Under the pieces are notes generated by a model. It was not told where the DNA came from. It did not search any database and saw nothing but the letters and a program-made list of their open reading frames with translations. The position numbers and the translations under genes are program-made. From Ostreococcus lucimarinus (Eukaryota), in NCBI GenBank assembly GCA_000092065.1, contig CP000587.1: DNA of 64,000 bases; one strand, given 5' to 3'. Position 1 is the first letter of the stretch. Every line of letters starts with the position of its first letter. Positions 13,242 through 27,413 of this stretch are shown piece by piece.

Positions 13242-16200
13242 ATGGCGGTGGGAACGCGACGGGAGCGCGATGCGTCGCGAATGTCGCGCGCGCACGACGC
13301 GGATGACGCCGCGGACGCGCGACCGTGGCGATGGCGGCGATGCGGGACGTTTCACGCGTCCGAGGGAGGGATTTGGGGGACGAGCGGGACGACGACGGCG
13401 CGCGCGGCGACGCGATGGGAAAACGCGCCGCTGGAGGGGTTCGGTTTGCGCTTCGCGAGCGATGCGGAGGAGGAGACGACGACGCGCGCGCGAGCGTTGG
13501 AGGCGTGCGCGAGAGAAACGCTCGGAGAGGGCGGGTTGACGAATGAGATGTTGGAGGAGACGGCGCGCGCGACGACGACGCCGAGCGCGGCGAGCGACGA
13601 CGCGGCGACGATTTCGAACATCGAGACGCGGTTGGCGTCGACGCGCGCGATGTTGAGGGGATTGGGCGTCGATGAAGCGAAAACGAAAGCGGTGATGGCG
13701 CGGGCGATGGACGCGTGGGGAGGGGAGATTCGAGAACGCGAACGAATCGTCGACGCGCTGGAGACGCGCTTGCTCGAGGGAGACGAGGACGAGGAGGCGT
13801 TGAATTACATCTTGCGTCGTGCGGTGGCGCGGTTGAGGGTTTTGAAGACGAGTGGAGCTCGTTCGAGGGTCGGCTTGCGGGCGTGTGTGGCGAGCGCGAC
13901 GGCGTCCGTCGCCGCGGCGTCCACCACCGCGGCCGTCGCGGCAAAGTCTACGCCCATCGCGAAGAAAGGCCGCGGTGGAATGTTCTCTTGCTGCGGCGCA
14001 GATTCGACGGCGATCGATGACGACGCTCAAGAGCTCGCGTACGCGCCTTCGGAAAGTGCAGCCGTTGAATGCGAACCGCTTACTTGCGTCGTACGTCTTT
14101 CACGCGTTGGGGAAGAAACGGCGAGCGCATACTCGTCGACATCTCGCGCATACTCGTCGACATCTCGCGCATCTTCGCGAGAAGGAGGCGTTTTGTTCAA
14201 CGCCACGACTCCGTTATTGACCGTTTCCGAAGATGACACGATTGAGTTCAACTTTTACGCGGGCGACGCGCACGAATCCGTCGACGAGAGTGCAGTCGAT
14301 GCGAATGATAGGATGCGCGCCAACGCCGTCATGTCGCCGCACGTCGGGGAAACAAGTGGCAAGATTAGAGGAAGCGCCACCATTTGTGTCGCAGATTTAG
14401 CAGAGACGACGAGAAAAGACGAACCGCACGTGCTCACGATTTTCATCGAGCGGCCGAAGAGTGGAGGGTCACCGGGTCAGGTCTACGGTAAAGCAATCGT
14501 ACGCATTGACAAGTTCGTCGAATCGTTTGACGACGGAACGACGCAGATCGCGACGGCGAAGGGCGACGTTCTGAAAGATGCCGCCGTGCTTTTCGCGGCG
14601 CTCGACAAGTCGAGTGTGCCAAATGTAAAACAGCTTGTGCGCAGCTTCGTGGATCAGCGCGGCGCATGCCCGTCCATTGCTGCACTGGCCGAAATGATTA
14701 CGCTTTGCATTGATTGGCGACTCGAACGCCCGCAACTTGATAGATTACGCCACTGCACAATGGAAGTGTTCGCGGCAATTGCGGTGAATCGAATTACGGC
14801 GAGTGAGAAGCAGCGGTTTGACGAACTTTCCGCGCTCATGTCGAAACAACTAGAAACAGAGCTGTGCAATATTTTGCCGACGGCAAAAGTCGCCGAGCAA
14901 GAACTCGTCGATGTGCTTGACATGGAGTATTCTGCCAGTATCGCCCGCGCGATCATTCCATTATTTGCTTTGACCCTTGGGAGCATTTCAGCCACTCGGC
15001 TCGTGTTGCGGTTGAAAAAGGTCGTTCGCGAGGCCATGCGTAAACGTTGTGTCGAGCACATGGTGAGGGAAAATCCGACAAAGGGCCCTCCCACGGTTGC
15101 GTGCGTGACGTCTATGATATGCAAACTCACCAAACGTTTGCCGCTCGACGCTGCGATTTTATCGCAGTTTCCGTCCGAAGTAGAAGCTCTTTCGGAGGCT
15201 GCGTCGGCGTCGAGTGCTTTCATCGCAAACATTATTACTGAAGTATTTCAGGCGATCGCGAGCATGCGTAGCCCGCCTGATTACGACTCCGGGATGATGG
15301 CACTAGACGATGCGCTGTGCGCGCACAGGAGGGCATTAAAGCGATATGATTTGGTGCTTGCTATGCAGCCGATTTCGTCCCGGTTCATCGATCGGCTCCT
15401 TCAGCCGGCTTTGGATGAAACGCTAGGCACAGTACACCATGCGCTGGTTGCGTGGGTCAAGCAAGAAATTGATGGCGAAAGAACAAATTTAGAGCCCGTG
15501 GACGTCGAAAGAGGAGCGATGCACAGTATGTCGTGCGTCAATCTTTTTTGTGTACTCTACAACATCGATAGAGCAGCGCAAGATCACATTCTTCACGGCG
15601 AAAGAGCGGCGTTCAACGCTACATCGTTGAGTCAAATGTGCTATGAAGTGTTTAAGACGTACGTCAATATTTATGAAAGAGCGTGCTTGGAGGCGATCCA
15701 GAACGCGCGCTTGCATTTGATGCAAGACTCAAAGGGGCAGAATACGAAGACGGCGAATGTTTCGGACGTAAAGTCTCTGATGGTTGGTAACTTTTACACG
15801 CGTCTAAGTAATATTCATCAGTGCATCCTCGCGATCGAACCGTTCATGGAAGAGATGCCGTTACTGTGGTGTTCGTCAAAGTCGGAGTTCGACGAGACAC
15901 TCAAGCGTCAAGCGAGCTCGGAGTATGGTATCGATGACGATCAAGTGATATTGTTTGAGGACGATGAAGTCCATGTCTTCGACGAGAAAAGAATGCTGGA
16001 TACTGATTTCTTCGCGAACAGAATTGTACAGAAACTTCGCACCGTTCGCGCAAACGTCATTGCGTCATTAACGGAGTTGATCGAAGAACGGATTGCACCG
16101 TTTATTCGTGTCGCTATTCTTGACAAGGAAGAAAAGACACGTTCTGCGGCGGTACGCATAGTCTTCATGATGATTGACTCGGAGCTCAAGCTTATGAACG

Positions 16201-17498
16201 AGAGGCTTGCGCCAGGGGCGTTTCGACTGGCGTTGTCTTCGATGCACAAAGGGGTGTGTGATGCGATCGAACAACTCATCCTACACAGACCGATAGAGGA
16301 GGGAGCGCTAGAAGCCAGTGAGCGTTGGAGAGGATTACCAACGCTCACAGAAATGCAACATTCCTTAGTCGTCGAGCTCATGGCAGATGTCAGAGAATTC
16401 TTCCACTGCGACGGTGCCGGCGAGCCTGAGTCAATTCTCAAGGATGGCGAAGGCAGACTGCGCCGTTTGTTGAATTTATGGTTTACGCCCACGATCGAGA
16501 TTATGCGAGAATTCTGGCAGTTGAAAGAAGTATTGTCCCGATCGATCGTTTCGGCGCATGGCAAACAAATCCGACTGCGGTCGATCGGTGGAGTGGCCGT
16601 TCAAGACATCTTGCGCTTTTTGCGTCAGCGTTCAAACGACGCAACAGCAATGGATCTTTACAACGAACAGAGCATGCTGATTACGAAAATGAGTCTAAAA
16701 GCACTCTTTGGCGAACAGTTAATGAGTATCGACTCTTTACTCGGTGCCTGGGTTTGCCGCGATGGTTCTGGCTTAATAGGACGATTCTACATCACGGCTA
16801 CGCAATTGGCGTTTTCGACATCTGGAATGAGCATCGATCACCCGCACGACAGCCAGACAGCGGTCGTCCGAGAGATTCGCAGAATCGCGAACATCTCGCG
16901 TATCGATGCTGCTGATGGTACGCCTGGGCTTCGCATCACATTCGACGATCGTCGATCATTCACTTTCAGTGAATTCGGTGGAATGCACACCGAGTTAAAC
17001 ATTCAAGCTCGAGAGAGGGATTCGTGCGTCGCGGTGATTCGCACGAATCCTTGCTTCTTGCAGCGTCCGGTATTCATGCACGATATTCAAGTCGCACAAA
17101 TTTCAGATCATGCGTGCGAGACTTTAGATGAGGTTGTCAGCGTAGAAACGGCGCAGCGAATGGAGCCACCCACTCTGCCGGCGGATGAGGAAGTGATCGC
17201 CACGTGCGTCTGCGCGCGTGCGAACGGCTTAGCACGCGACTTGGGGAAGTTTACGGTGGCGAGCCAATCGTGCGTGTTTTTACCAGTCAACGGGTCAGGT
17301 CGTGGAGTGTTGTATAAGACTATGACGTCAACGAAGAGGATGCCACAGTTGCGGCCATTCGGTTGGAAGAATGCTGATATCATCATCCCGATACGACATT
17401 ACGAAGAACCCGTGTTGCGCTTGACGGGGATGACGCTCGTTGAAGCCCAGTCGGTTTTCGACGCACTGTCGAGCGCCATTACCGCTTACAAAAGTTAG
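13242..17498 (+). CDS. large uncharacterised protein (1418 aa); possible C2-like region, long helical middle, C-terminal PH/GRAM-like domain
   Basis: Uninterrupted 4.26-kb ORF with ordinary, lower-GC composition. C2-like stretch HVLTIFIERPKSGGSPGQVYGKAIVRIDKF. C-terminal LIGRFYITATQLAFSTSGMSI...GLRITFDDRRSFTFSEFG resembles PH/GRAM folds. The N-terminal 300 aa are low-complexity, so the true start may be downstream. Confidence 0.6.
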   Translation: MAVGTRRERDASRMSRAHDADDAADARPWRWRRCGTFHASEGGIWGTSGTTTARAATRWENAPLEGFGLRFASDAEEETTTRARALEACARETLGEGGLTNEMLEETARATTTPSAASDDAATISNIETRLASTRAMLRGLGVDEAKTKAVMARAMDAWGGEIRERERIVDALETRLLEGDEDEEALNYILRRAVARLRVLKTSGARSRVGLRACVASATASVAAASTTAAVAAKSTPIAKKGRGGMFSCCGADSTAIDDDAQELAYAPSESAAVECEPLTCVVRLSRVGEETASAYSSTSRAYSSTSRASSREGGVLFNATTPLLTVSEDDTIEFNFYAGDAHESVDESAVDANDRMRANAVMSPHVGETSGKIRGSATICVADLAETTRKDEPHVLTIFIERPKSGGSPGQVYGKAIVRIDKFVESFDDGTTQIATAKGDVLKDAAVLFAALDKSSVPNVKQLVRSFVDQRGACPSIAALAEMITLCIDWRLERPQLDRLRHCTMEVFAAIAVNRITASEKQRFDELSALMSKQLETELCNILPTAKVAEQELVDVLDMEYSASIARAIIPLFALTLGSISATRLVLRLKKVVREAMRKRCVEHMVRENPTKGPPTVACVTSMICKLTKRLPLDAAILSQFPSEVEALSEAASASSAFIANIITEVFQAIASMRSPPDYDSGMMALDDALCAHRRALKRYDLVLAMQPISSRFIDRLLQPALDETLGTVHHALVAWVKQEIDGERTNLEPVDVERGAMHSMSCVNLFCVLYNIDRAAQDHILHGERAAFNATSLSQMCYEVFKTYVNIYERACLEAIQNARLHLMQDSKGQNTKTANVSDVKSLMVGNFYTRLSNIHQCILAIEPFMEEMPLLWCSSKSEFDETLKRQASSEYGIDDDQVILFEDDEVHVFDEKRMLDTDFFANRIVQKLRTVRANVIASLTELIEERIAPFIRVAILDKEEKTRSAAVRIVFMMIDSELKLMNERLAPGAFRLALSSMHKGVCDAIEQLILHRPIEEGALEASERWRGLPTLTEMQHSLVVELMADVREFFHCDGAGEPESILKDGEGRLRRLLNLWFTPTIEIMREFWQLKEVLSRSIVSAHGKQIRLRSIGGVAVQDILRFLRQRSNDATAMDLYNEQSMLITKMSLKALFGEQLMSIDSLLGAWVCRDGSGLIGRFYITATQLAFSTSGMSIDHPHDSQTAVVREIRRIANISRIDAADGTPGLRITFDDRRSFTFSEFGGMHTELNIQARERDSCVAVIRTNPCFLQRPVFMHDIQVAQISDHACETLDEVVSVETAQRMEPPTLPADEEVIATCVCARANGLARDLGKFTVASQSCVFLPVNGSGRGVLYKTMTSTKRMPQLRPFGWKNADIIIPIRHYEEPVLRLTGMTLVEAQSVFDALSSAITAYKS

Positions 17499-17575
17499 AC
17501 GTCAAAAACGCGAAAGAACAGCAGAGTAGCGGTGTGATATATCATTATGTAGTCGTAGCAAATCGTGTTTCATAT

Positions 17576-20500
17576 CTACGCTGCGTCCAATTCAACAGTC
17601 AACACGGCGAGGTTGTCGTTTATGATGGATGAGTACGTTTCGACGGCATCTGGCAAAATCTCTTCGAGCGCTGAAATGAGCTTTTGCGTTTGTTTGAGCC
17701 AGTCGATTGCTTCCTTCGTTCGCATCGATCTCTCATGTCGAACGGCACGGTTGAAACAAGTTGAGAGCAACCACTGCGCTTCCACTGGGGGATATGAAGG
17801 ATGCAGTGCGAGGAACTCTTCGGCCGAGTCGTAAAGCGAGTGAATCACGTCGTCTTTGCTTTTGTACACTCGCGAAGCGAGTTGAATTTGTTTACGCATT
17901 AATCGCGCGATGAGAGCAACGTCTTGAATCAAATACTTCTTCATAGCTTTCCCAACCGCTTCATATGCTCTCGAAACGGTGACCAAATCAGACGTTCTCA
18001 TCGCCGCGCCGCGGTCGGCAATCATCAAGAGCGTGTTTATTGAAGCTTCGTCATCCAACGTCTTTGTCGATAATATTTCGATTATTTTGCCTTGCAACGC
18101 GACGTCACGCTGGGCGCAAGCGATTTCATATTCAAGGACACTCGCAACCTTTCGCAACTCTTCGTACCTTTCCTCTTCAGCGTTTTTCAACAAGCTGTGG
18201 AGATTGGCCATCGCACCCTTTGAGCGGGCGATATTCTTCGCTTCGCGTTCTTTCCGAGATTGTTCGTCTCCTACATCAGTAGCTGGGTTATAGCTGGTGA
18301 GCGATGCGATGGACAACAGAAGCGCGACTGCTTGTCGATAGCCATACTCTGCACGATCGTCTGCATCCAAACCTTCTGGAATCTTGTTTAATTTGGAAAT
18401 CACAAGCGCACATAAAAACATAAACTGATAGGCCGCTTCTGTTTCTGACGACTTTTCGTACGCGTCGAGGCCAGTATTCCACGAAAAGTCGGCGAGATAC
18501 CGTGCCTGTCGAACATCTGTGAGAAGATTCAAATTCGACGCTCGCTTCATGAACTCGCTGAACAACTCGGCTGATTCAGAAAACGTCTTCGAGTCAAAGT
18601 CACCCATTTTGGCCATTTTTACGTGTCGCAGATAACTGCAAAATATAAAAGTCTCTTGCTTCATCATATTATCGGTACCCATATTGTTCAAAATCATATC
18701 GTAAAGGCTACGAAAAGCGTCTGCGGCCGTGGCGTGGTGCTTTGAGCCATCGAGTTCTCCCGCAACGTATAACAACGCATCAGATTCACCTGCCTTTGCA
18801 AACGTTCGAATCGATTCTCCCAGGCCCGAGACGTCGTCAGAAATGAGCTGAAACTTTACGTTCAACAATGTTGTGGACACATCCGTCGCGGTCTTGTCCG
18901 CCAGCAAACTTCGCAGCGACTCCTTTGCTTGTTCGATATCGCCATTCTCGAGATCGCACATCACTTGCAGCCGGATAACCGGTACCGCTGCGTTGCTCAC
19001 GGTCTTCGACTTTCTTTGTGACGATAATGGGAGCGTCATACCAAACAGTTTTCGTGCCAGTGAGTACTTATTTTGCATGTACATGTCAGATGCAGCGTTC
19101 CAGATGATGGCGTATGCACGAGATTGCCCGTCGCGAGAAAAACCGATTTCCTTGAAACTATCGGTATCTGTAAGAAGTCGATCCATATAAGACAGAACAT
19201 CGTTTGCTACTTGTTCATCTACAGTGAGCGTCGTATCCAGTAGAGCTTCAAAGATATCAGTAATCATTTCTTGTCGTCTCGCCTTTGGACAGCCGCTCAG
19301 TCGTTTGGCGAGCGGAGCGATGCACGACGCAACGGCGCCAGCGCCGCATTCGCTCTTCGCCAGATTGACACAGCACGTATGGAGGACATTCACAACAGAG
19401 TTTTCATCGTTGAGTACATTTTCGAGTATGCTGCACGCTTTCGAAATCTCACCACTCCCTGAGAACGCTTCAATCAGCATGTTGTCCATGAGAAACGATT
19501 CGGTTAACGCCTGCAAATCGCGAGCCAAGACGTTATCACTATTTTCACACTTTTTCGCGTAAGACTTGATTATTTTCATTTTATCCAACACTTTAAGAGC
19601 CTCGTTGTACCTTCTTCCGTGAATGAATAGTCTGGCAAGGTTATGCAAGATGCGAATGTACAAACCATCGGCGCGAACCAGGCGGTGGTCCTCGCACACG
19701 AGTTTCTCATCTAAATCAAAGTGCGCCGCGTTATCTTGATGGGAAGACGTCGACCAAGAATTCGGAGTGATCGTGAACAAGTCGTAGTATGCTGCGATTA
19801 GCTCTTTGACGAGGAAACCAACTTTTCTGTCGAACACGGCTTCGTCATCTGCTGATTGAAGCTTTTCTGAAACCACGAAATTCTCAGCCAAGTTTATCTT
19901 CGCGCTGATCAATGTCGTTACGCACATAGTCTCATTTCCTTTATTCTTTTCGCTTTCAGAAAGCGATTTGGCGTCTTGAAAAAAGTCCCGAGCACCGGCG
20001 ACGTTGCCGAGATAAAAACAGTTCTTTGCGCGTGACGTGGCGGCTTCAATCGTCTGTAACATTGTCTCGGCGTCGAATTCGCCATTTCGGTTCAAGAACG
20101 AATTACCGTATGATTCACCGATCACGAACTGCTCTTCCGCCGCCTTGAACTCACCCGCATCGTGCAGCAACTTTGCGAGCGTCAAGTGATTTGAAATGCC
20201 GACAGCGAGACTCGAAATTTCAGGCGCCCCAGCGCTCACAGCGAAGCCATCCGCAAATCCCAACGCGGCGTCCAGCAACTCACACGCGAAGTACCTCAAA
20301 TCAAGCAACGGACCAATCATTTCCTTCTTCACAATCCCGCTTTCCGCCGTCGTCTCCAACGCCGTTTTCTCGATTGCGAAATTCCAGCATCGTTGCGACA
20401 TGTGCCTCGCTAAATCGCTCGCCTTCGTCGCATTCGTCGACCACAAATCTCGCAATCGCTCACTCACCCGCCGCACCTCACTCACCGTATTCGTCATCTC

Positions 20501-20938
20501 ATCCTCGCTCGATATTCTCTTCGCCAATTCCGCGCGCTTCAAAGAATCATGAAACGTCGTCCAGACATCATCCATCGCGTCGCGCTCCGGCGTCTCCGAT
20601 CTCGCCGCGCCGCGCGTCTTCGTTGTCTCCGAGACGCCACCATCCTCCGCACCCGCTCCGTCGCTCTCGCGCCGCTCCAGCCCCGCGCCTATAGAAACTT
20701 CGCTCAAAGAAATATCCATCAGCGCTTCCGCGCCTTTTCGAGCGCCCGTCGGCGTCGCATCGCGCGGTGCCGTCCTCGTTTCGTCGCGTTTGCGTTTCGG
20801 TCCGGAATCGCTCCCAGAGTGCGTGGTTTCGCTTTTCGACGCCGCGGGCGACGCGGTCGACGCGGGTGCGTCGTCAGCGCGAGGTGGATCCGATGTGTCG
20901 GTATCGGTTCGTTTGAACGGGCTCTGGAAACCCGGCAT
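17576..20938 (-). CDS. large helical/TPR-like repeat protein (1120 aa), uncharacterised
   Basis: Uninterrupted 3.36-kb ORF of normal, lower-GC composition, predicted all-alpha with repeated amphipathic helices. The N-terminal 120 aa are S/T/P/D-rich and disordered. No catalytic motifs. Confidence 0.55.
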   Translation of the reverse strand: MPGFQSPFKRTDTDTSDPPRADDAPASTASPAASKSETTHSGSDSGPKRKRDETRTAPRDATPTGARKGAEALMDISLSEVSIGAGLERRESDGAGAEDGGVSETTKTRGAARSETPERDAMDDVWTTFHDSLKRAELAKRISSEDEMTNTVSEVRRVSERLRDLWSTNATKASDLARHMSQRCWNFAIEKTALETTAESGIVKKEMIGPLLDLRYFACELLDAALGFADGFAVSAGAPEISSLAVGISNHLTLAKLLHDAGEFKAAEEQFVIGESYGNSFLNRNGEFDAETMLQTIEAATSRAKNCFYLGNVAGARDFFQDAKSLSESEKNKGNETMCVTTLISAKINLAENFVVSEKLQSADDEAVFDRKVGFLVKELIAAYYDLFTITPNSWSTSSHQDNAAHFDLDEKLVCEDHRLVRADGLYIRILHNLARLFIHGRRYNEALKVLDKMKIIKSYAKKCENSDNVLARDLQALTESFLMDNMLIEAFSGSGEISKACSILENVLNDENSVVNVLHTCCVNLAKSECGAGAVASCIAPLAKRLSGCPKARRQEMITDIFEALLDTTLTVDEQVANDVLSYMDRLLTDTDSFKEIGFSRDGQSRAYAIIWNAASDMYMQNKYSLARKLFGMTLPLSSQRKSKTVSNAAVPVIRLQVMCDLENGDIEQAKESLRSLLADKTATDVSTTLLNVKFQLISDDVSGLGESIRTFAKAGESDALLYVAGELDGSKHHATAADAFRSLYDMILNNMGTDNMMKQETFIFCSYLRHVKMAKMGDFDSKTFSESAELFSEFMKRASNLNLLTDVRQARYLADFSWNTGLDAYEKSSETEAAYQFMFLCALVISKLNKIPEGLDADDRAEYGYRQAVALLLSIASLTSYNPATDVGDEQSRKEREAKNIARSKGAMANLHSLLKNAEEERYEELRKVASVLEYEIACAQRDVALQGKIIEILSTKTLDDEASINTLLMIADRGAAMRTSDLVTVSRAYEAVGKAMKKYLIQDVALIARLMRKQIQLASRVYKSKDDVIHSLYDSAEEFLALHPSYPPVEAQWLLSTCFNRAVRHERSMRTKEAIDWLKQTQKLISALEEILPDAVETYSSIINDNLAVLTVELDAA

Positions 20939-21013: not shown

Positions 21014-22075
21014 TTACGTCATTCCAGCCATGCTCCCCGCGAGATTGAACGCGGGAAACACGATGTTGGGGAACTTTTTGGACAGCGTCGTGAACTCTTC
21101 GAACGATATGTTCCCATCGCCGTCGGTATCGCACTGACGCATGAGCCATTCTACCTTGCGTTCGATTTGCTTGTCGGTGCTCATATTCGTCGCGCAAATG
21201 ATTTTGCGCAGTTCGCTCGAGTCGATGTACCCCGAACCGTCGAGATCGTACACGCTGAACGCGAACTGAATCTTATTATCGCGTGCCTCGCCACCGACGT
21301 TGGCCATACCGACGATGAATTCCTTAACGTCGATGAGACCGGTGCGATCGGTGTCAAACATGGAAAACAGACGCTCGACAAACGGCGTGCGATCGACGCG
21401 CAACATGCGCACGAATTCATTCACGTCCACGCGCCCGCTCCCATCCTTATCGCTCTCCAAGAACGCCTTGTATATTGCTTTTAACGCGTCCGTACCGAGC
21501 CCTTGGGACCTTCGGAACGACTCTAAATCATGAATCCCGCCCGATCCGCCGACGCCGACGTCGTCCATCCCGCCCATCGGCGCTCCGCCGCCGCCGACGC
21601 CCATCATGCCCGCACCGCCCGCGCCCATTCCCACGCCGTACGTTCCGCCCATCTGATGCGGCGCTCCACCGTACGCGTTCCCATACTGCACTCCCGGCGC
21701 GTTCCCGTACCCATACCCTCCTCCCGGTCCCGGCGCGCCGCCGCGATTCAACGCCATATTCGGCGGTTGCCCGTACTGTCCTCCTTGTCGCCCCACGTTC
21801 GCGCCGTAGCCCCCCGCGCGCGGCGCCACGGGCGCGCCGCTCAGCTGCGCCATCAACCGGTGAAATTCCTCGAACGATATCTGCCCATCGCCGTCGGTGT
21901 CAGCCATTAAAATCATCTCATCTATCTCGTCATCCGTCACCTTCTCGCCCATGGATGCGAGGACGTGCGCGATCTCCGCGGCGCCGACGTAGCCGTTGCG
22001 GTCGAGATCGAACTCGCGGAACGCTTGGCGGATGTCGTCTTTCGACAGGCCGCCGGCGTCGGGCTGGGCGTACAT
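21014..22075 (-). CDS. EF-hand calcium-binding protein: N-terminal calmodulin-like EF pair, Gly/Tyr/Pro-rich linker, C-terminal calcineurin-B/recoverin-like EF-hand module
   Basis: EF loops [60 protein letters not shown] and [12 protein letters not shown]. The central linker [18 protein letters not shown]...[20 protein letters not shown] resembles penta-EF-hand-type Gly/Tyr-rich regions. Confidence 0.8.
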
Positions 22076-22229
22076 CGCGCGCGCGCGACGGTGACGCGCG
22101 ACGGCCGCGGCTTTTTTACGCGCCGCGGTCGAGTGAGTGACGTTTGAAATCGAGGGCGCGGGAGGAAGGTTTGATTCTTTCGTCGGTGAGTGATGTGACA
22201 GAGAAAGAACGACGCGCTAAGCGCTGAGG

Positions 22230-25200
22230 CTACTTGGAGACGGTTTTCATGGTGAAACGAAGTTTTGGCTTGGGAGCGCCTTTGTCGGCGGGCGGGCGCC
22301 AGCGCGGCTCGACGCACTTGGCGGCGTCGTACGGAGAGTCGCGCTCGGGAACGGGATGACCAGGGTACAAAGATTGGATCGTCTTCGCGATGACGCCGCG
22401 TAAGACTTCGGCATCTTTGTACAGCGTGCTGCTCGATTCGTTGAAGTTTTGGCAGTTGGAAAGCATGAGCTCGAGGGCGACGCAAAACATCCACGTCGAG
22501 GGGTAACCGCCCGCGTTCAAGCATTTTTGAATGCTGCCGAGATCGATGGGCGCAGAGATGGCGCGATAGTACTCGGGTAAAGCCTTACGCGTAGGAAGTA
22601 ACTCGAAAGGATCCGCGCGTTTGCGTCCTTTTTTGTCCTTGCTCGCGCGAATAGCGGCCAGAACGCTCCGACACGCGCTCGTTTCTTGCTTTGTCATCTC
22701 TATCTTTTCCGGCGGCGGAGACGCCTCCGCGGTGTCTTCGCTCATCTCTTCTCGACCGTCATCCGCGAGGTAATCGATTTCTTCATCGGTATCGACATCC
22801 ACTTTGTTCACCAGTTCCCAGACTTCCCCACCTCGAGCGTCACGAAAGACGAGCGGGTTTTGTCGCAATAGCGCGCCAAGCGCCGCGAGTGGTCTTCGTC
22901 CCCAAAGACCACAATCCACACCTTTCTCGACCATGATTTCATAAAGCGAATTTAATGGCATTGCGTTTCCGTGAACACGAGAGAGGACGTAAATCGCGCA
23001 GTCGAGCGGGTTCTTCGGCACGCGACGATCTCTCGGCGCGCTGCGTTGAGACTTTCGCTTTGGTACATATTCCTCAGAATCCGAATCATACCGCGCACGA
23101 CGCTTCCTTTGCGGGGCGGCTTGTGTGTTTGATTGTCTGAGCTCTGGTTGAACGTACTTCTGCGGAAATGGATCGTCTTCGTCTTCAATCACGCCATCAT
23201 CGACTGGTTTATCCCACGCTGGCTCATCTACGTTGTCGTAAATGTTCTTTGATGGCACCGGGTGGCCTGGAAACCGTTCCTGAACCGCCTTGAGATAGAC
23301 GCCTCTCAGGACTTCGGCGTCTCTGTAGAGCATCGAAGCGGGATCGTTAAAGCGCTGACAATTGGTAAACATGAGCTCCATCGCGACGAGGAAGAACCAG
23401 ACATTCGGGTAACCAGCCATGGATTTCCGAAGCATTCGCTCGATCGCCGCACAGTCGACCGGACACTTGATGATTTCGTAGTAATCAGGTAGGGTGAAGC
23501 GCGAAGGGAGCCTTTCGAACGGTTCAGATAAGCTTCTACCATCGGCTTCGACTTTGCGAACAGCTTGTAGAATTTCGAAGCACTTACGACGCTCGCTATG
23601 CTTCATCGTCGTCGTCGATGGTTTCAAACGCGTGTAAACGCTAAATCCTCCTAGTGGAACTCGAACGGTGGCTTCTTCAGAGCCTGCAACGCCTGGCGGA
23701 CGCACGTGGAGACGAGAGGGCGCTTTTTCGTCCTCGGCTTCCTCTTCGTCGTTCGGAACAAGCACGTCCGAATCGAGCCACTTCACGCGTTGCATGCAGA
23801 GCGCGACGTCCTCCAGTTGACCATCGTCGTACCTAATTGAATGATCGCCGTTCGCGACGTTGTAAGCTTCAACATTCCCGAGGTAGAACAGCTGCTCTGT
23901 CGCCCACCAGACCGCTATGCGCCGTCCGATGACATCATCGCCCTTTTCATCGCCGCGTTCGACCAAGTGCGCGCCGATAGTAATGCCAGGCGTGTCGTCG
24001 GGATTGAGAACGCGGCACGAATTTCGCCATTTTTTTGAGCTGCCGCAGCCAGACATGCGTTCGAATTCGCCCCCACCGACTATTTTGTCTGAAGCGACAT
24101 CGTGTATGCGTTCAGCGCGCGATTTGCACATTGTTTGTAACATGCCTACGTGACCGGCACAGGTAATGGCGATTGGATCCGGAATATCTTCCTCGCCTTC
24201 GTAGGCCGCAAGATCTTCGGCGCTGTAGCCGATGGATTCCTTCATGCACACCACGCGCCTCCCTCCGTGCAATTCCATCTCAGCCTCGCGGCGAACCTCT
24301 TCCTCTTCAGCATCTCTACGTCGACGTTCGCGCTCACGCTCGCGCTCAGCATCGCGTTCTGACTTCTCTGCAGCCTTTTCAAAAGACTCGATGCTTCGCA
24401 GGACCTGGTATTCAAACGTTCGCTTTGCGTCGAGATCCTCCAAAGCAATGTTTGCGAGCATTTCTCGTTTCGTCTCGTCGGCGTCGTCCATGGCCGCAGC
24501 TTCTACTTTCCGCTCCATGTGCGCTTCGAGGGAGTCTTGCACTTGCTCTTCCGAGTACCCGAATAGCGTGTCACCATCTATTTGGTCTGGCTTCCATTCG
24601 TACTCGACGGGTTTGTACCGCTCCGATTCGGTGAGATTGAGTTGATACTTTTCGTATCTCCCCGTTTCAACCATGCGCTTGAGGTGAGAGTGCGCGGCGT
24701 AGGGTACCGCTCGCTGGTACAGTCGCTCCTCCGGAAGTTCGTCCGCCATGACCTGTCTATTGGTAATCAACCCCGTACTCGCAAGAGTGACGAGTTTAGT
24801 GAAGTGCGGCAAGGACGACCAATCGACAGCGTCAATGGGGTAGTCCTCGACCACGCCTCTAGTCGTCCTCATGAGCATCGTGGAAGTGGATACCGGTGCA
24901 CCTGGTAAGAAGCGATTGACAGCCGGATACTGGGTCGATAAGGGTTCTGAGTGTCGCTCCCAATCCTTTTCGGTTCGCTCGTAGCGACTCAAACCGTCAT
25001 CGGCGGCGACGTCCACTTCCATCCTGTCATCCTCGACGACGTCCACGTTCAACACTAGGTCGCCAGCGTCGGATACGGATAACGTGACCGCCACGCGCTC
25101 GCATCGCGCCTCCGCATCGTCCGTGACTTCGACGTTCTTCTCCTCTTTCACCTCGACATACCCATTTATTTGAAGGTCCTTGAATTCAACAGTAGAGTTC

Positions 25201-26219
25201 AAGTTATCCGCGAATCCCATCGGCCGATACGTGTGACCCATGCAAGCATAGAACAATCCGCACGCGGTGCACAAAGAGCGTCGCTTATCTGGACCGAGAC
25301 GCATCTTTGGTGTCTCTTCTTTGCTGATGCCGCATTGTACGCAGTGGGAGGCGATTTCACCGTCTAAGACGTCGATCTTGTCCACTTCCCAATTCTGGAA
25401 CTTGTTCTCTTTGAACTGCTTGCGAAACGCCCGTCGTGTCTTTTCTTCTTCGTCAAGTTCATCTTCTTTCACGACGGGAATCGGTGCGTGCTTGACAATC
25501 GGCGCCCACAACGCCCTCGCGCGCTCGTCAATGTACGTCGGGTAGTACGGACGGTACCAGCTCGGCGTTGGACTACCCATCAACAAATCTAAGGCCTTCT
25601 CCGCGCGTTCAACAATGAAGTCTTCGTAAAGTCGCCGCCGACGTCTTGCGCACTCTTGCAAAATGATCACCGCCGCGCCGCTCGCCGTCGCGCTTCCTTT
25701 CTCATCCGTTCGCACGTGTCGTTTATTCTCCTTCACACGATCATTCCCCCATATCAAATGGTGCCAACCCACGTCATCCGTCCACGCCGCGTACGGTTCA
25801 TCACCGCAGTACCCTTCGACGAAGTAATTCTTCGGCACCAATCTTCCATTCAAACCTCTATCCTCCTCCGTCGCCGTGCCGAGACTCCCCACGTCCGCGT
25901 CCACCTCAAACGCCCAATGCGTCCTCAACGGTCGCTCGATCCGCGTGCCGCGCCACGACGTCAGCCTCGACTCTTTCCGTAATTTCTCCACTCGCGAGCT
26001 CTGTCTCGCCGGTTCTCTCTTCACTCTCGGTCCTCGTCCTCTTCCGCGGCCGCGTCCGCGCCCTCGCCCTCGTCCGCGGCCCGGCCCGTCTCCCTCTCCA
26101 CCGATCCCCGCCTCGCTCGCCAGCTTCGCCAGCGCCAAGCGTTCCATCAGCGCTTTATTTCTTTCGATTTTCGCTTGTCGCTCGCGCTCGTACTCGGTGA
26201 GCTCTTCTTCGCGCGCCAT
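22230..26219 (-). CDS. chromatin-associated protein with two Brg1/polybromo-type bromodomains, a GATA-type zinc finger, a Tudor/Agenet-like module and an N-terminal (Gly-Arg)n repeat
   Basis: 1329 aa. Bromodomains ..LPDYYEIIKCPVDCAAIERML...VAMELMFTNCQRFNDPASMLYRDAEVL.. and ..LPEYYRAISAPIDLGSIQKCL...VALELMLSNCQNFNESSSTLYKDAEVL.. GATA finger CVQCGISKEETPKMRLGPDKRRSLCTACGLFY (C-x2-C-x20-C-x2-C). (GR)8 repeat near the N-terminus. Confidence 0.8.
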   Translation of the reverse strand: MAREEELTEYERERQAKIERNKALMERLALAKLASEAGIGGEGDGPGRGRGRGRGRGRGRGRGPRVKREPARQSSRVEKLRKESRLTSWRGTRIERPLRTHWAFEVDADVGSLGTATEEDRGLNGRLVPKNYFVEGYCGDEPYAAWTDDVGWHHLIWGNDRVKENKRHVRTDEKGSATASGAAVIILQECARRRRRLYEDFIVERAEKALDLLMGSPTPSWYRPYYPTYIDERARALWAPIVKHAPIPVVKEDELDEEEKTRRAFRKQFKENKFQNWEVDKIDVLDGEIASHCVQCGISKEETPKMRLGPDKRRSLCTACGLFYACMGHTYRPMGFADNLNSTVEFKDLQINGYVEVKEEKNVEVTDDAEARCERVAVTLSVSDAGDLVLNVDVVEDDRMEVDVAADDGLSRYERTEKDWERHSEPLSTQYPAVNRFLPGAPVSTSTMLMRTTRGVVEDYPIDAVDWSSLPHFTKLVTLASTGLITNRQVMADELPEERLYQRAVPYAAHSHLKRMVETGRYEKYQLNLTESERYKPVEYEWKPDQIDGDTLFGYSEEQVQDSLEAHMERKVEAAAMDDADETKREMLANIALEDLDAKRTFEYQVLRSIESFEKAAEKSERDAERERERERRRRDAEEEEVRREAEMELHGGRRVVCMKESIGYSAEDLAAYEGEEDIPDPIAITCAGHVGMLQTMCKSRAERIHDVASDKIVGGGEFERMSGCGSSKKWRNSCRVLNPDDTPGITIGAHLVERGDEKGDDVIGRRIAVWWATEQLFYLGNVEAYNVANGDHSIRYDDGQLEDVALCMQRVKWLDSDVLVPNDEEEAEDEKAPSRLHVRPPGVAGSEEATVRVPLGGFSVYTRLKPSTTTMKHSERRKCFEILQAVRKVEADGRSLSEPFERLPSRFTLPDYYEIIKCPVDCAAIERMLRKSMAGYPNVWFFLVAMELMFTNCQRFNDPASMLYRDAEVLRGVYLKAVQERFPGHPVPSKNIYDNVDEPAWDKPVDDGVIEDEDDPFPQKYVQPELRQSNTQAAPQRKRRARYDSDSEEYVPKRKSQRSAPRDRRVPKNPLDCAIYVLSRVHGNAMPLNSLYEIMVEKGVDCGLWGRRPLAALGALLRQNPLVFRDARGGEVWELVNKVDVDTDEEIDYLADDGREEMSEDTAEASPPPEKIEMTKQETSACRSVLAAIRASKDKKGRKRADPFELLPTRKALPEYYRAISAPIDLGSIQKCLNAGGYPSTWMFCVALELMLSNCQNFNESSSTLYKDAEVLRGVIAKTIQSLYPGHPVPERDSPYDAAKCVEPRWRPPADKGAPKPKLRFTMKTVSK

Positions 26220-26522
26220 GCCGCGTCGTCAATCGCGTTCGAGCGGTGAATCGCTTTTTGAATTTGTTTTTTAGTCTGCGCGCCCGGTGCCGGCGCGGAA
26301 ACCGAACCGTCGTTTGATTGGACGCGCGTCGACGCGCGAGCGATGCGGTCGCGCGCGCGCGCGCGCGCTCGGCGGCGCGAGCGGGACGAGCGCGCGCGAC
26401 GTCGGCTCGATCTGCGGCGCCGCGCGACGCGGGGACGAGGGGACGACGGGGTGAAATCCGTGTGTGAGATTGAGACTGGGCGCGGCGCGCGAACGCGCGC
26501 GAGGACGACGGGCGTTACATCG

Positions 26523-27413
26523 CTAGAGCGGGACGAAAGGAAAGTCGGGGGAGCGGCGGAGCCAATTGGTGGGGCGCCAAGTCGCGGTGGCGTCGACGTA
26601 GTGGACCGAGTACGCGTGGCGAGACGCCGGCGAAAGATTCGGGCGACTGTAGTGCACGTTTTGGCCGTGAAGCACGACCAAGGTTCCGGCGGGGACGTCC
26701 AAGGGTTCGGCGACGGTGAGGTCGTGCGTCGGGGCGTCGCCGATGAATTCGACCGCGCGAGTGCCGTCGTGGTCAACGACCATGCGTCGCGCGACATCGG
26801 GCGTGCCGGAGAGCGCGTGCAGGCAGCCGTTTTCCAGCGTGCAATCCTCGAGGGCGAGCCAAATTCCGACGCACGTCGGTGGGTCGGTGTTCAAAAAGGT
26901 TGAGTCTTGATGCGGCACCACTTCACCGCCGATGGACGGTTGTTTGAATATGTACATGGACTGCACCGGTTGCGGATTCCGCGGCGAGCCCAGCGTTTTG
27001 AATAGATTCTTCACCTTTTCCGAGCGACTCCACGCGCGAAACACTGGATCTAAATCGTGCAGCGCGTGTCCGATTTTGTTGATCGAGAGGTGTTTCGGCA
27101 CGCGCAGTTCGCCCCGTTCATCGAACGCTCCCTCTTCAAAGAAGCAACAGACTTTGTCGGCCGACCCCAAAAAATACTCGTCCGTCGCCCGTTTCTGCCC
27201 GGACTGATTCACGGTAGAGAAGATCGACTCTCTGTTTGCGTTGGCGTCGAATTTGTCGACTATTTCCGCCGCGCGCGCGCGCATGGCGGAGATTTCGGTG
27301 GGGCTCGCGAAGTCAGTGAGCACCAAGTATCCATGCGTTTCGAACGCGCTGACGTCTTCGGGTGCGAGCGAGCCGCTCGTCGAACACTTCGACCAGGATG
27401 TCTTCGCGCGCAT
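26523..27413 (-). CDS. phytanoyl-CoA dioxygenase (PhyH) family Fe(II)/2-oxoglutarate oxygenase, PHYHD1-like
   Basis: 296 aa. ..FETHGYLVL.., the HxD iron ligands in VVPHQDSTFL and a distal His in ..VVLHGQNVHYSRPN.. are arranged as in the PhyH family. Confidence 0.75.
   Translation of the reverse strand: MRAKTSWSKCSTSGSLAPEDVSAFETHGYLVLTDFASPTEISAMRARAAEIVDKFDANANRESIFSTVNQSGQKRATDEYFLGSADKVCCFFEEGAFDERGELRVPKHLSINKIGHALHDLDPVFRAWSRSEKVKNLFKTLGSPRNPQPVQSMYIFKQPSIGGEVVPHQDSTFLNTDPPTCVGIWLALEDCTLENGCLHALSGTPDVARRMVVDHDGTRAVEFIGDAPTHDLTVAEPLDVPAGTLVVLHGQNVHYSRPNLSPASRHAYSVHYVDATATWRPTNWLRRSPDFPFVPL

Follow-up and report, generated by a model that had tools for sequence, protein, structure and literature searches.

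A Mamiellales protein combining two bromodomains with GATA-, SAND- and Tudor-type modules, a probable chromatin-anchoring adaptor of Ostreococcus

Background

Lineage-specific shuffling of reader modules is common among eukaryotic chromatin proteins. Polybromo-1 (PBRM1), for example, carries six tandem bromodomains, two BAH domains and an HMG box, while in the MTA1-3 and GATAD2A/B proteins of NuRD a single GATA-like finger forms part of a large non-catalytic chromatin protein. The genomes of the picoalgae Ostreococcus and Micromonas are among the smallest of free-living eukaryotes and encode a reduced set of chromatin proteins, and O. tauri is genetically tractable, hence predictions made for this group are testable. 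Here we describe a gene of O. lucimarinus (assembly GCA_000092065.1, contig CP000587.1) located at 22230..26219, on the minus strand, of an analyzed stretch of 64,000 nucleotides (hereafter the window), which encodes a protein of 1329 amino acids (aa) with two bromodomains, a GATA-type zinc finger, a Tudor domain and further modules.

Among the described systems with which this protein can be compared, SP140 (CARD - SAND - PHD - bromodomain) is a reader without catalytic function, through which repressive complexes are recruited (PMC11879014). HARE-HTH domains are typical of chromatin proteins, and binding to DNA or modified DNA has been proposed for these domains and reported for ASXL1 (PMC6591016). 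In the Tudor domain of RDM15 (PDS5C), which reads monomethylated lysine 4 of histone H3 (H3K4me1), the methyl group lies in a cage formed by W616, Y623 and Y641, D643 and D645 bind the ammonium protons, E647 and Q654 bind H3R2, and D645 is needed for monomethyl selectivity (PMC8184781).

Results and discussion

Domain architecture

From the N- to the C-terminus, the 1329-aa protein is composed of a conserved helix, an arginine-glycine (RG) tract, a conserved block A, a GATA-type finger, a conserved block B, a charged helix, a SAND domain, a Tudor domain, a first bromodomain, a probable HARE-HTH winged helix and a second bromodomain. It thus contains two acetyl-lysine readers, one methyl-lysine reader, two to three nucleic-acid-binding folds, a basic tract, acidic linkers and a patch resembling a nuclear localization signal (NLS), while Pfam scans of the protein and of seven orthologs did not reveal a catalytic domain. 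Each identified part is a known kind of module; the combination is confined to Mamiellales. From the identities of the domains and the conservation of their ligand-contacting residues we infer the ligands, a nuclear location and a partner complex, and we consider the protein to be, with fair probability, a multivalent chromatin-anchoring adaptor specific to Mamiellales. All features of the protein reported below lie on the minus strand.

Bromodomains

Two stretches, aa 873-983 and aa 1176-1284, matched the Pfam bromodomain profile (PF00439; E = 5e-29, 100.5 bits as compared to a cut-off of 21.7), and bromodomains were found in all seven orthologs. The two stretches are approx. 190 aa apart, with a tail, a basic linker and the winged helix between them. 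Each belongs to a longer unit, the first of which (aa ~873-1020; 23160..23603) shows N958, the motif PDYY at 911-914 and a tail of the form FPGHPxP…YD..DEPxW, while the second (aa ~1176-1310; 22290..22694) shows N1260, PEYY at 1215-1218 and the tail YPGHPxP…YD…EPxW. The BC-loop Asn of bromodomains anchors the acetyl-lysine, and the role of the ZA-loop Tyr is established from structures; both domains keep the Asn (N958 and N1260) as well as the ZA-loop PxYY (Y913/Y914 and Y1217/Y1218). Conservation of N958 and Y913/Y914 extends without exception to the distant orthologs, and N1260 and Y1217/Y1218 are invariant among the Ostreococcus orthologs, with N1260 also found in P0059, one of two distant orthologs (P0059 and P0060) described below. 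In an alignment of the bromodomains themselves, none of these Asn and Tyr residues varies. As the two units of bromodomain plus tail share 45% identity over 148 aa (E = 9e-46), we conclude that they originated by internal duplication. In a large profile search with this unit, the only matches were short fragments of this family from metagenomes (13 in total); as named relatives were absent, the search did not help to place the bromodomains.

The closest solved relatives of the bromodomains are PBRM1 (E = 1.2e-52 when its bromodomains are taken together), RSC4, BRG1/SMARCA2/4 and a "SWI/SNF nucleosome remodeling complex component", so that the assignment to the SWI/SNF-polybromo type, which a preliminary description of this gene had made from the sequence, holds as a statement about best hits. 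It is tempting to go further and to regard the protein as the equivalent of polybromo or of Rsc1, Rsc2 and Rsc4, i.e., as an acetyl-lysine-reading and DNA-touching targeting subunit of a Mamiellales SWI/SNF-type remodeller of the PBAF/RSC type, which could reasonably be seen as a refinement of the adaptor reading that names the partner complex. PBRM1/BAF180 and Rsc1, Rsc2 and Rsc4 are, like the Ostreococcus protein, non-catalytic multi-readers with DNA-contacting modules, the Ostreococcus protein shares with PBRM1 and Rsc1/2 the presence of more than one bromodomain beside another reader and modules that bind DNA, the best solved relatives (PBRM1, RSC4, BRG1/SMARCA2 and the SWI/SNF component) are of this class, and automatic annotation names the family "protein polybromo-1". 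However, the Ostreococcus protein has only two, non-tandem bromodomains, as compared to six in PBRM1 or a contiguous tandem pair in Rsc4, and no BAH or HMG match was found in the seven orthologs even at E <= 10; its GATA, SAND, Tudor and HARE-HTH modules, on the other hand, are lacking in PBRM1 and the Rsc proteins. Moreover, the scores set this class apart from other bromodomains by a small margin only (47 bits for BRD4, as compared to 66 for RSC4 and 46 for BRG1), and the unit of bromodomain plus tail is without named close relatives. Overall, we regard membership in a PBAF/RSC-type complex as a tentative and rather unlikely specification of the adaptor role. The name "polybromo-1" (JGI/IMG), which the pipelines assign because the bromodomain sequences are nearest to PBRM1, RSC4 and BRG1, is not justified for a protein with two bromodomains and neither a BAH domain nor an HMG box.

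Tudor and SAND domains

A single Tudor domain of the PTM/DIR17/RDM15 type was located at aa ~755-815 (23775..23957). Although the corresponding Pfam profile (PTM_DIR17_Tudor, PF21743) reaches only 18.6 bits in the 1329-aa protein, below its cut-off of 27.2, P0059 scores 41.4 bits, Pfam Tudor matches occur in seven of seven orthologs (best E = 8.7e-6), and a phmmer comparison with the Tudor domain of Arabidopsis RDM15 (PDB 7DE9) gave E = 1.9e-11. Together with the conservation of the aromatic cage, these results bear out the Tudor-like module that had been recognized in the preliminary description. In the alignment with 7DE9, W616, Y623, Y641, D643, D645 and E647 of RDM15 correspond to W772, Y779, Y797, D799, Q801 and E803, respectively, so that the W/Y/Y cage and the equivalents of D643 and E647 are common to both domains. 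W772, Y797, D799 and E803 are invariant as far as the distant orthologs, and the conserved aromatic cage indicates that a methyl-lysine-binding cage is present. The position of D645 is occupied by Q801 here and by Glu in P0059 and P0060, and the counterpart of Q654 is ambiguous owing to a gap of 2 residues; as Q801 is not an Asp, monomethyl specificity cannot be assumed. The Ostreococcus Tudor domain belongs to the plant PTM/DIR17/RDM15 group, while the remainder of RDM15, with its ARM/HEAT repeats and its context of cohesin and RNA-directed DNA methylation, is unrelated to the Ostreococcus protein.

Immediately N-terminal to the Tudor domain, a SAND domain (aa ~679-752; 23970..24185) was assigned by profile and transitive evidence. 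The block was recognized by eye (…ITCAGHVGML…SSKKWRNSCRV…) and shows a KKW(R/K) form of the KDWK motif. The Pfam SAND profile (PF01342; threshold 22 bits) did not match the 1329-aa protein, and weak matches of 16-17 bits were obtained for five of seven orthologs (best E = 0.0048). A profile of the block searched against the PDB placed the SAND domain of SP140 at the top (E = 0.019), with the VxCG and SKxW signatures aligned. Among the proteins matched by the SAND block plus Tudor (E values between 1e-26 and 1e-46), P0067, P0090 and P0063 have SAND domains that pass the Pfam threshold (49.7, 41.3 and 35.3 bits, respectively), and hhalign aligned the block with the SAND domain of P0067 at 96.5% probability (E = 8.3e-10; 35% identity). 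K729-K730-W731-(R/K), which corresponds to the DNA-binding KDWK helix, does not vary among the orthologs.

With this assignment, the nearest characterized proteins by layout are the animal speckled proteins SP140, SP100C and SP110, in which SAND is likewise followed directly by a methyl-lysine-type reader and then by a bromodomain, within a non-catalytic protein. We thus considered whether the protein might be a repressive scaffold of the SP100/SP140 kind, acting in nuclear bodies or in the silencing of, e.g., viral or transposon DNA rather than in activation or remodelling. The order SAND - methyl-lysine reader - bromodomain is that of SP140, the RG tract and the charged coiled coil would be expected to favor multimerisation or condensates, and the pressure exerted by giant viruses on Ostreococcus is heavy. 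However, the CARD/HSR multimerisation domain is absent and a Tudor domain stands in place of the PHD (no CARD or PHD match by Pfam), the similarity to the SP140 SAND domain is marginal (E = 0.019), and the bromodomains are nearest to the PBRM1/SMARCA class and not to the SP family; furthermore, the Ostreococcus protein adds the GATA finger, the HARE-HTH domain, a second bromodomain and the N-terminal blocks. A scaffold role of this kind is therefore given very little weight. As the similarity is confined to single modules and too low for orthology, the likeness to the SP family represents an analogy by domain shuffling; the Ostreococcus protein would operate along broadly similar lines but is not a member of that family, and its resemblance to SP140 is best seen as convergent.

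The pairing of SAND and Tudor (23775-24185) was also observed outside this family. In many of the matches obtained with a search profile free of bromodomains, one aligned stretch covers the SAND helix and the Tudor domain. Pfam SAND and Tudor domains lie approx. 35-60 residues apart in proteins of Pyramimonas (P0112) and Nannochloris/Chlorella desiccata (P0195) and in the metagenomic proteins P0063, P0094 and P0109. A Cymbomonas protein (P0077) has SAND, Tudor and AP2 together, with AP2 between the other two, and in P0124 and P0154 SAND occurs with PHD-SET, the Tudor-like match of P0154 being weak and non-adjacent. The SAND-Tudor pair looks like a mobile two-domain unit across Chlorophyta, and its recurrence as a unit suggests that the two domains act together.

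GATA-type finger

The preliminary description had listed a GATA-type finger of plant-type spacing and had proposed an acetyl-lysine reader that may be recruited directly to DNA. The finger itself (C-x2-C-x20-C-x2-C, aa 293-329; 25233..25343) passes the profile threshold (Pfam PF00320; 33.1 bits as compared to a cut-off of 26.8) and was detected in seven of seven orthologs; a profile matched GATA fingers in the PDB at E = 1.2e-5. The zinc ligands C293, C296, C317 and C320 are invariant in the seven orthologs, including the distant ones, as is the core TxxMR.GP…LCxACG. The spacing was thus read correctly, but it is not a general plant spacing: loops of 20 residues are known from one subclass of plant GATA fingers only, and in the alignment with GATA18, a plant finger available in the PDB, the GATA18 loop is 2 residues shorter.

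Finger loops of DNA-binding GATA transcription factors have 17-18 residues, and in canonical GATA fingers a basic tail C-terminal to the finger contacts DNA, as seen in the GATA-1 and AreA structures. Here, the loop of 20 residues is 2-3 residues longer than in the solved fingers, and the segment after the finger (YRPMGFADNLNSTVEF; …RP.GF.DELN.T.EF…) is acidic to neutral, conserved as such, with no basic cluster. These features bear on the possibility that the protein is chiefly a sequence-specific GATA transcription factor acting at (A/T)GATA(A/G)-like sites, with the readers merely modulating its action. A score above the Pfam threshold and the invariance of ligands and core agree with such a factor; the missing tail, the 2-3 extra loop residues as compared to fingers with solved DNA complexes and the modest alignments to solved fingers, which are best for the N-terminal fingers of GATA-3 and GATA-1, do not. 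Moreover, the finger makes up only 37 of the 1329 residues, and two other DNA-binding folds exist in the protein. We thus judge a role as a GATA transcription factor to be distinctly unlikely.

These observations also weaken the proposal of recruitment through the finger, which had overlooked the SAND and probable HARE-HTH domains: given the lack of a basic tail and the longer loop, these two domains are at least as likely to contact DNA. What stands of the proposal is the presence of family-VIII-like bromodomains, GATA finger and Tudor domain in one protein and the lineage-specific nature of this combination (see below). The finger could assist in contacting DNA or mediate protein interactions, and direct DNA binding by any of the modules is a prediction. 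The MTA1-3 and GATAD2A/B proteins offer a functional precedent only, i.e., that such a finger need not read the classical GATA motif, as the Ostreococcus protein is without their BAH/ELM2/SANT or CR1/CR2 context. A weak match to the GATA part (E = 0.1) was seen in PDB entry 23cp_S, residues 546-579, a "Putative chromatin structure-remodeling complex protein"; if this match is true, a GATA-like finger would already be known from a complex of the RSC type.

Winged helix between the bromodomains

The tail of the first bromodomain unit is followed by a basic, serine-rich and acidic linker (aa ~1038-1066; 23022..23108; RKRRAR…KRKSQRSAPRDRR), the conserved basic patch of which may serve as an NLS, and then by a probable winged helix of the HARE-HTH type (aa ~1068-1140; 22800..23018). 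A profile of this region against the PDB matched the N-terminus of ASXL1 best, if weakly (E = 0.95). The Pfam HARE-HTH profile (PF05066) stayed below threshold, with a match in one of six orthologs (E = 0.086). AlphaFold2 predicted a three-helix core with a predicted local distance difference test (pLDDT) score of 73-84, the wing hairpin not being confident, and this model superposed best on winged helices, including the N-terminal domain of RNA polymerase delta. Finally, hhalign against ASXL1 1-85, a sequence confirmed for residues 16-63, gave 88.8% (E = 2.5e-6). These four independent weak-to-moderate signals agree, and the domain between the bromodomains is thus probably of the HARE-HTH type found in ASXL1-3, plant HB1 and RNA polymerase delta. 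To our knowledge, a HARE-HTH domain located between two bromodomains has not been described so far.

Proposed mode of action

Under the adaptor reading, both bromodomains, with their anchoring Asn and ZA-loop Tyr, would bind acetylated histone tails, while the Tudor domain, which retains the W/Y/Y cage and, of the three acidic contacts of RDM15, two, would bind a lowly methylated lysine, most likely in an R-x-Kme context such as H3K4me1. SAND and winged helix would contact DNA, possibly assisted by the GATA finger and the RG tract. Taken together, these weak contacts would restrict the residence of the protein to nucleosomes in which the appropriate marks are combined and lie beside suitable DNA. 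The blocks that are not readers (N-terminal helix, block A, block B and coiled coil) would likely be docking surfaces for a partner complex, which would thereby be delivered to selected chromatin.

Several points weigh against this adaptor role. Every ligand is assigned by homology and the partner complex is only postulated; about 40% of the protein, i.e., blocks A and B and the linkers, is without an assigned function. The SAND and Tudor domains are below Pfam's own thresholds in the 1329-aa protein, the GATA finger does not have the basic tail of DNA-binding GATA factors, and with Q801 in place of D645 the mark specificity of the Tudor domain may differ from that of RDM15.

A bolder version, to which we assign a low probability, sees in the protein the subunit that targets a SWI/SNF-type remodeller of Mamiellales, with SAND-Tudor and HARE-HTH acting as one sensor that couples the state of the DNA to a histone mark. 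If so, this sensor would read acetylation and H3K4 monomethylation jointly with either the sequence of the DNA or its base modification, all on one nucleosome, the SAND-Tudor pair, found beside AP2, SET and bromodomains, would be a general green-algal device that ties DNA readout to H3K4me1, and blocks A and B would represent new chromatin-associated domains.

Orthologs and phylogenetic distribution

In a first full-length homolog search, word matches to bromodomains dominated and just 7 proteins were retrieved. The distribution of the family was thus assessed with a profile of the non-bromodomain part (aa 100-870) of four orthologs, searched with HMMER against 1.84 billion representative proteins. 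Matches to several blocks were few: P0005 and P0058 of Ostreococcus, P0059 (1709 aa), P0060 (1384 aa) and fragments. The full-length Ostreococcus orthologs have 1311-1420 aa, show 54-65% identity (alignment A1; 51-61% by BLASTP) and are colinear with the 1329-aa protein over 99-100% of its length.

P0059 and P0060, which are encoded in genomes of 62% and 69% GC, respectively, share the order N-terminal helix - block A - GATA - block B - SAND - Tudor - bromodomain - winged helix - bromodomain. Their loci have a common neighborhood (KRR1 … XPG) that differs from the Ostreococcus locus, and their lineages are probably Micromonas or other Mamiellaceae; for P0059 a complete MMETSP transcript also exists. 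Across this divergence (approx. 33-35% identity), N958, K729/K730/W731, W771/W772, Y797, D798/D799 and the four GATA Cys are invariant.

Overall, the multi-block architecture was recovered only in Ostreococcus and these two higher-GC relatives, which agrees with the earlier suggestion of a lineage-specific domain combination; as far as the searched databases show, the family appears to be specific to Mamiellales. No description of the architecture was found in a literature search combining Ostreococcus/Micromonas, bromodomain and GATA/SAND, a search that did not extend to the founding HARE-HTH paper. The protein is a new arrangement of known modules within one green-algal order. As it would unite readers of acetyl-lysine (two) and of methyl-lysine (one) with as many as three DNA-binding modules, this strongly conserved protein is a candidate central organizer of chromatin targeting in picoalgae. 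The present analysis adds two domains (SAND and a probable HARE-HTH), corrects the misleading name "polybromo-1" and draws attention to the SAND-Tudor cassette, which should be useful for algal chromatin biology; the arrangement is unsurprising in principle, and no new principle is demonstrated.

The next-best green-algal match, QDZ24944.1 of Chloropicon primus (P0061; 246 bits, 2322 aa), was rejected as a distant ortholog, as most of its score stems from repeated Tudor domains. Its modules are in part those of the 1329-aa protein, but its architecture is different, with a weak Myb-like match, DDT, PHD, two bromodomains and at least 4 Tudor domains of the PTM/RDM15 type.

A C-terminal extension with a Cys-rich motif and a second Tudor domain was observed in orthologs of the Ostreococcus sp. 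RCC789/O. mediterraneus type (P0005/P0045 and P0006, last ~100 aa) and in the higher-GC orthologs, at the C-terminus of P0059 and at 8127-9161 of L006, the locus of P0060; it is missing from the 1329-aa protein and its closest relatives. This uneven presence indicates that the extension was lost or gained within Ostreococcus.

Gene model

The interval 22230..26219 consists of a single unbroken open reading frame (ORF) from ATG to TAG, i.e., 1329 aa and the stop, with zero internal stops. As an in-frame stop lies 4 codons 5' of the ATG, this ATG is the earliest possible start; the next Met is residue 25. The GC content of third codon positions exceeded that of second positions (GC3 > GC2) in 13 of 13 windows of 100 codons, with no break that would hint at an intron or a second gene. 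The exact protein recurs in 165 indexed blocks of public assemblies, many of them marine metagenomes, and a complete transcript-derived ortholog is available (UniRef A0A7S0KGS2, MMETSP0929, labelled O. mediterraneus, taxid 548131, i.e., Ostreococcus sp. RCC789).

An artefact, i.e., two neighboring genes or a read-through sharing one frame, or an ORF with an unrecognized in-frame intron, was also considered. A boundary could hide in the poorly conserved acidic linkers (aa ~346-455, 820-840, 1025-1040 and 1140-1170), and the gene of the distant ortholog P0060 (4001-9161 of L006) is called as two overlapping ORFs of 1384 aa and 344 aa, the second of which continues the winged helix, followed by the second bromodomain and the terminal Tudor domain; this split points to a frameshift or an intron in the P0060 lineage, or else to an error of the assembly. 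However, all Ostreococcus orthologs keep a single frame from end to end, transcript-derived orthologs labelled complete retain the linker regions, recognizable domains fill both halves in an order conserved down to 33-35% identity, and coding GC3 is uniform along the ORF. An artefact is thus hardly credible, and the ideas of two adjacent genes and of a hidden intron, raised in the preliminary description as ways in which its single protein might fail, were rejected on the basis of the colinear full-length orthologs, the codon-position GC and the transcript-derived proteins. We conclude that 22230..26219 is a complete single-exon coding sequence and a real, single, intron-free nuclear gene of Ostreococcus.

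The neighboring genes lie close by on the same strand, with a PhyH dioxygenase gene upstream (26523..27413) and a gene for an EF-hand protein downstream (21014..22075), a compact layout typical of Mamiellales picoalgae. The order DS - PhyH - 1329-aa gene - EF-hand - TPR was constant at every locus that was read.

N-terminal region and further features

A conserved helical motif at aa 5-36 (26112..26207; EELTEYERERxAKIERNKALMERLALAKLA) is near-identical among the Ostreococcus orthologs and recognizable in P0059 and P0060 as TKYERQRQANIARNKLLMQQL. Searches of Pfam and the PDB gave no match for this motif, which may represent a short helix for docking.

The (GR)8 repeat noted previously is present at aa 47-62 (26034..26081) and is encoded by mixed codons, i.e., not by a pure DNA microsatellite. 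The length of (GR)n differs between Ostreococcus orthologs, and P0059 and P0060 have a lysine/arginine-rich stretch instead. The N-terminal 100 aa matched only low-complexity RG/GS sequences in the PDB (SmD1, uS5 and a synthetic linker). The repeat is a basic tract that evolves fast and resembles nothing but RG tails of other proteins. In P0059 and P0060, AT-hook-like motifs (GRPRGRPRK and GRPVGRPRK; alignment A5, columns ~360-380 and ~1400-1410) were observed and (GR)n was not; the Ostreococcus orthologs have (GR)n and no AT-hooks. Within one protein family, the two lineages use different basic low-complexity elements of the DNA- or RNA-binding kind.

Block A (aa ~105-240; 25500..25907; …GWHHxIWG…RH…E.GC..A.GAA..IL.E..RR…) has approx. 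25 positions that are invariant among the seven orthologs, and block B (aa ~455-570; 24510..24857; VEDYP.D..DW…AAH.HLKRM…IDG.T.FGY…VQ.SLE) is kept in all orthologs, with large insertions in P0059 and P0060. AlphaFold2 modelling of aa 100-580 from an alignment of 7 sequences gave a mean pLDDT of 44.5; block A was modelled as five strands and a long helix, at a pLDDT of only 57-71, and block B at a pLDDT below 45. Neither block had a Pfam match, Foldseek with this low-confidence model found nothing better than E = 0.65 in the PDB, and a profile of aa 100-580 retrieved only GATA fingers from PDB sequences. Blocks A and B may be lineage-specific domains. Further downstream, a highly charged segment (aa ~575-650; 24270..24497; ERERERERRRRDAEEEE) is predicted by AlphaFold2 to be helical and is a probable coiled coil; it draws spurious low-complexity Pfam matches, e.g., to DivIVA.

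Several long ORFs in other frames or on the opposite strand overlap real genes (21937-22524 and 26147-26797 on the minus strand, 24173-24634 and 26343-26903 on the plus strand). These Arg/Pro-rich ORFs are a typical spurious by-product of DNA with approx. 60% GC and not genes. Elsewhere in the window, a local dip in GC content (0.47-0.52, as compared to approx. 0.60 elsewhere) was observed at ~14000-20000; it coincides with two large ORFs, one of 1418 aa at 13242..17498 (plus strand), for which no Pfam match was found, and one of 1120 aa at 17576..20938 (minus strand) with weak TPR matches.

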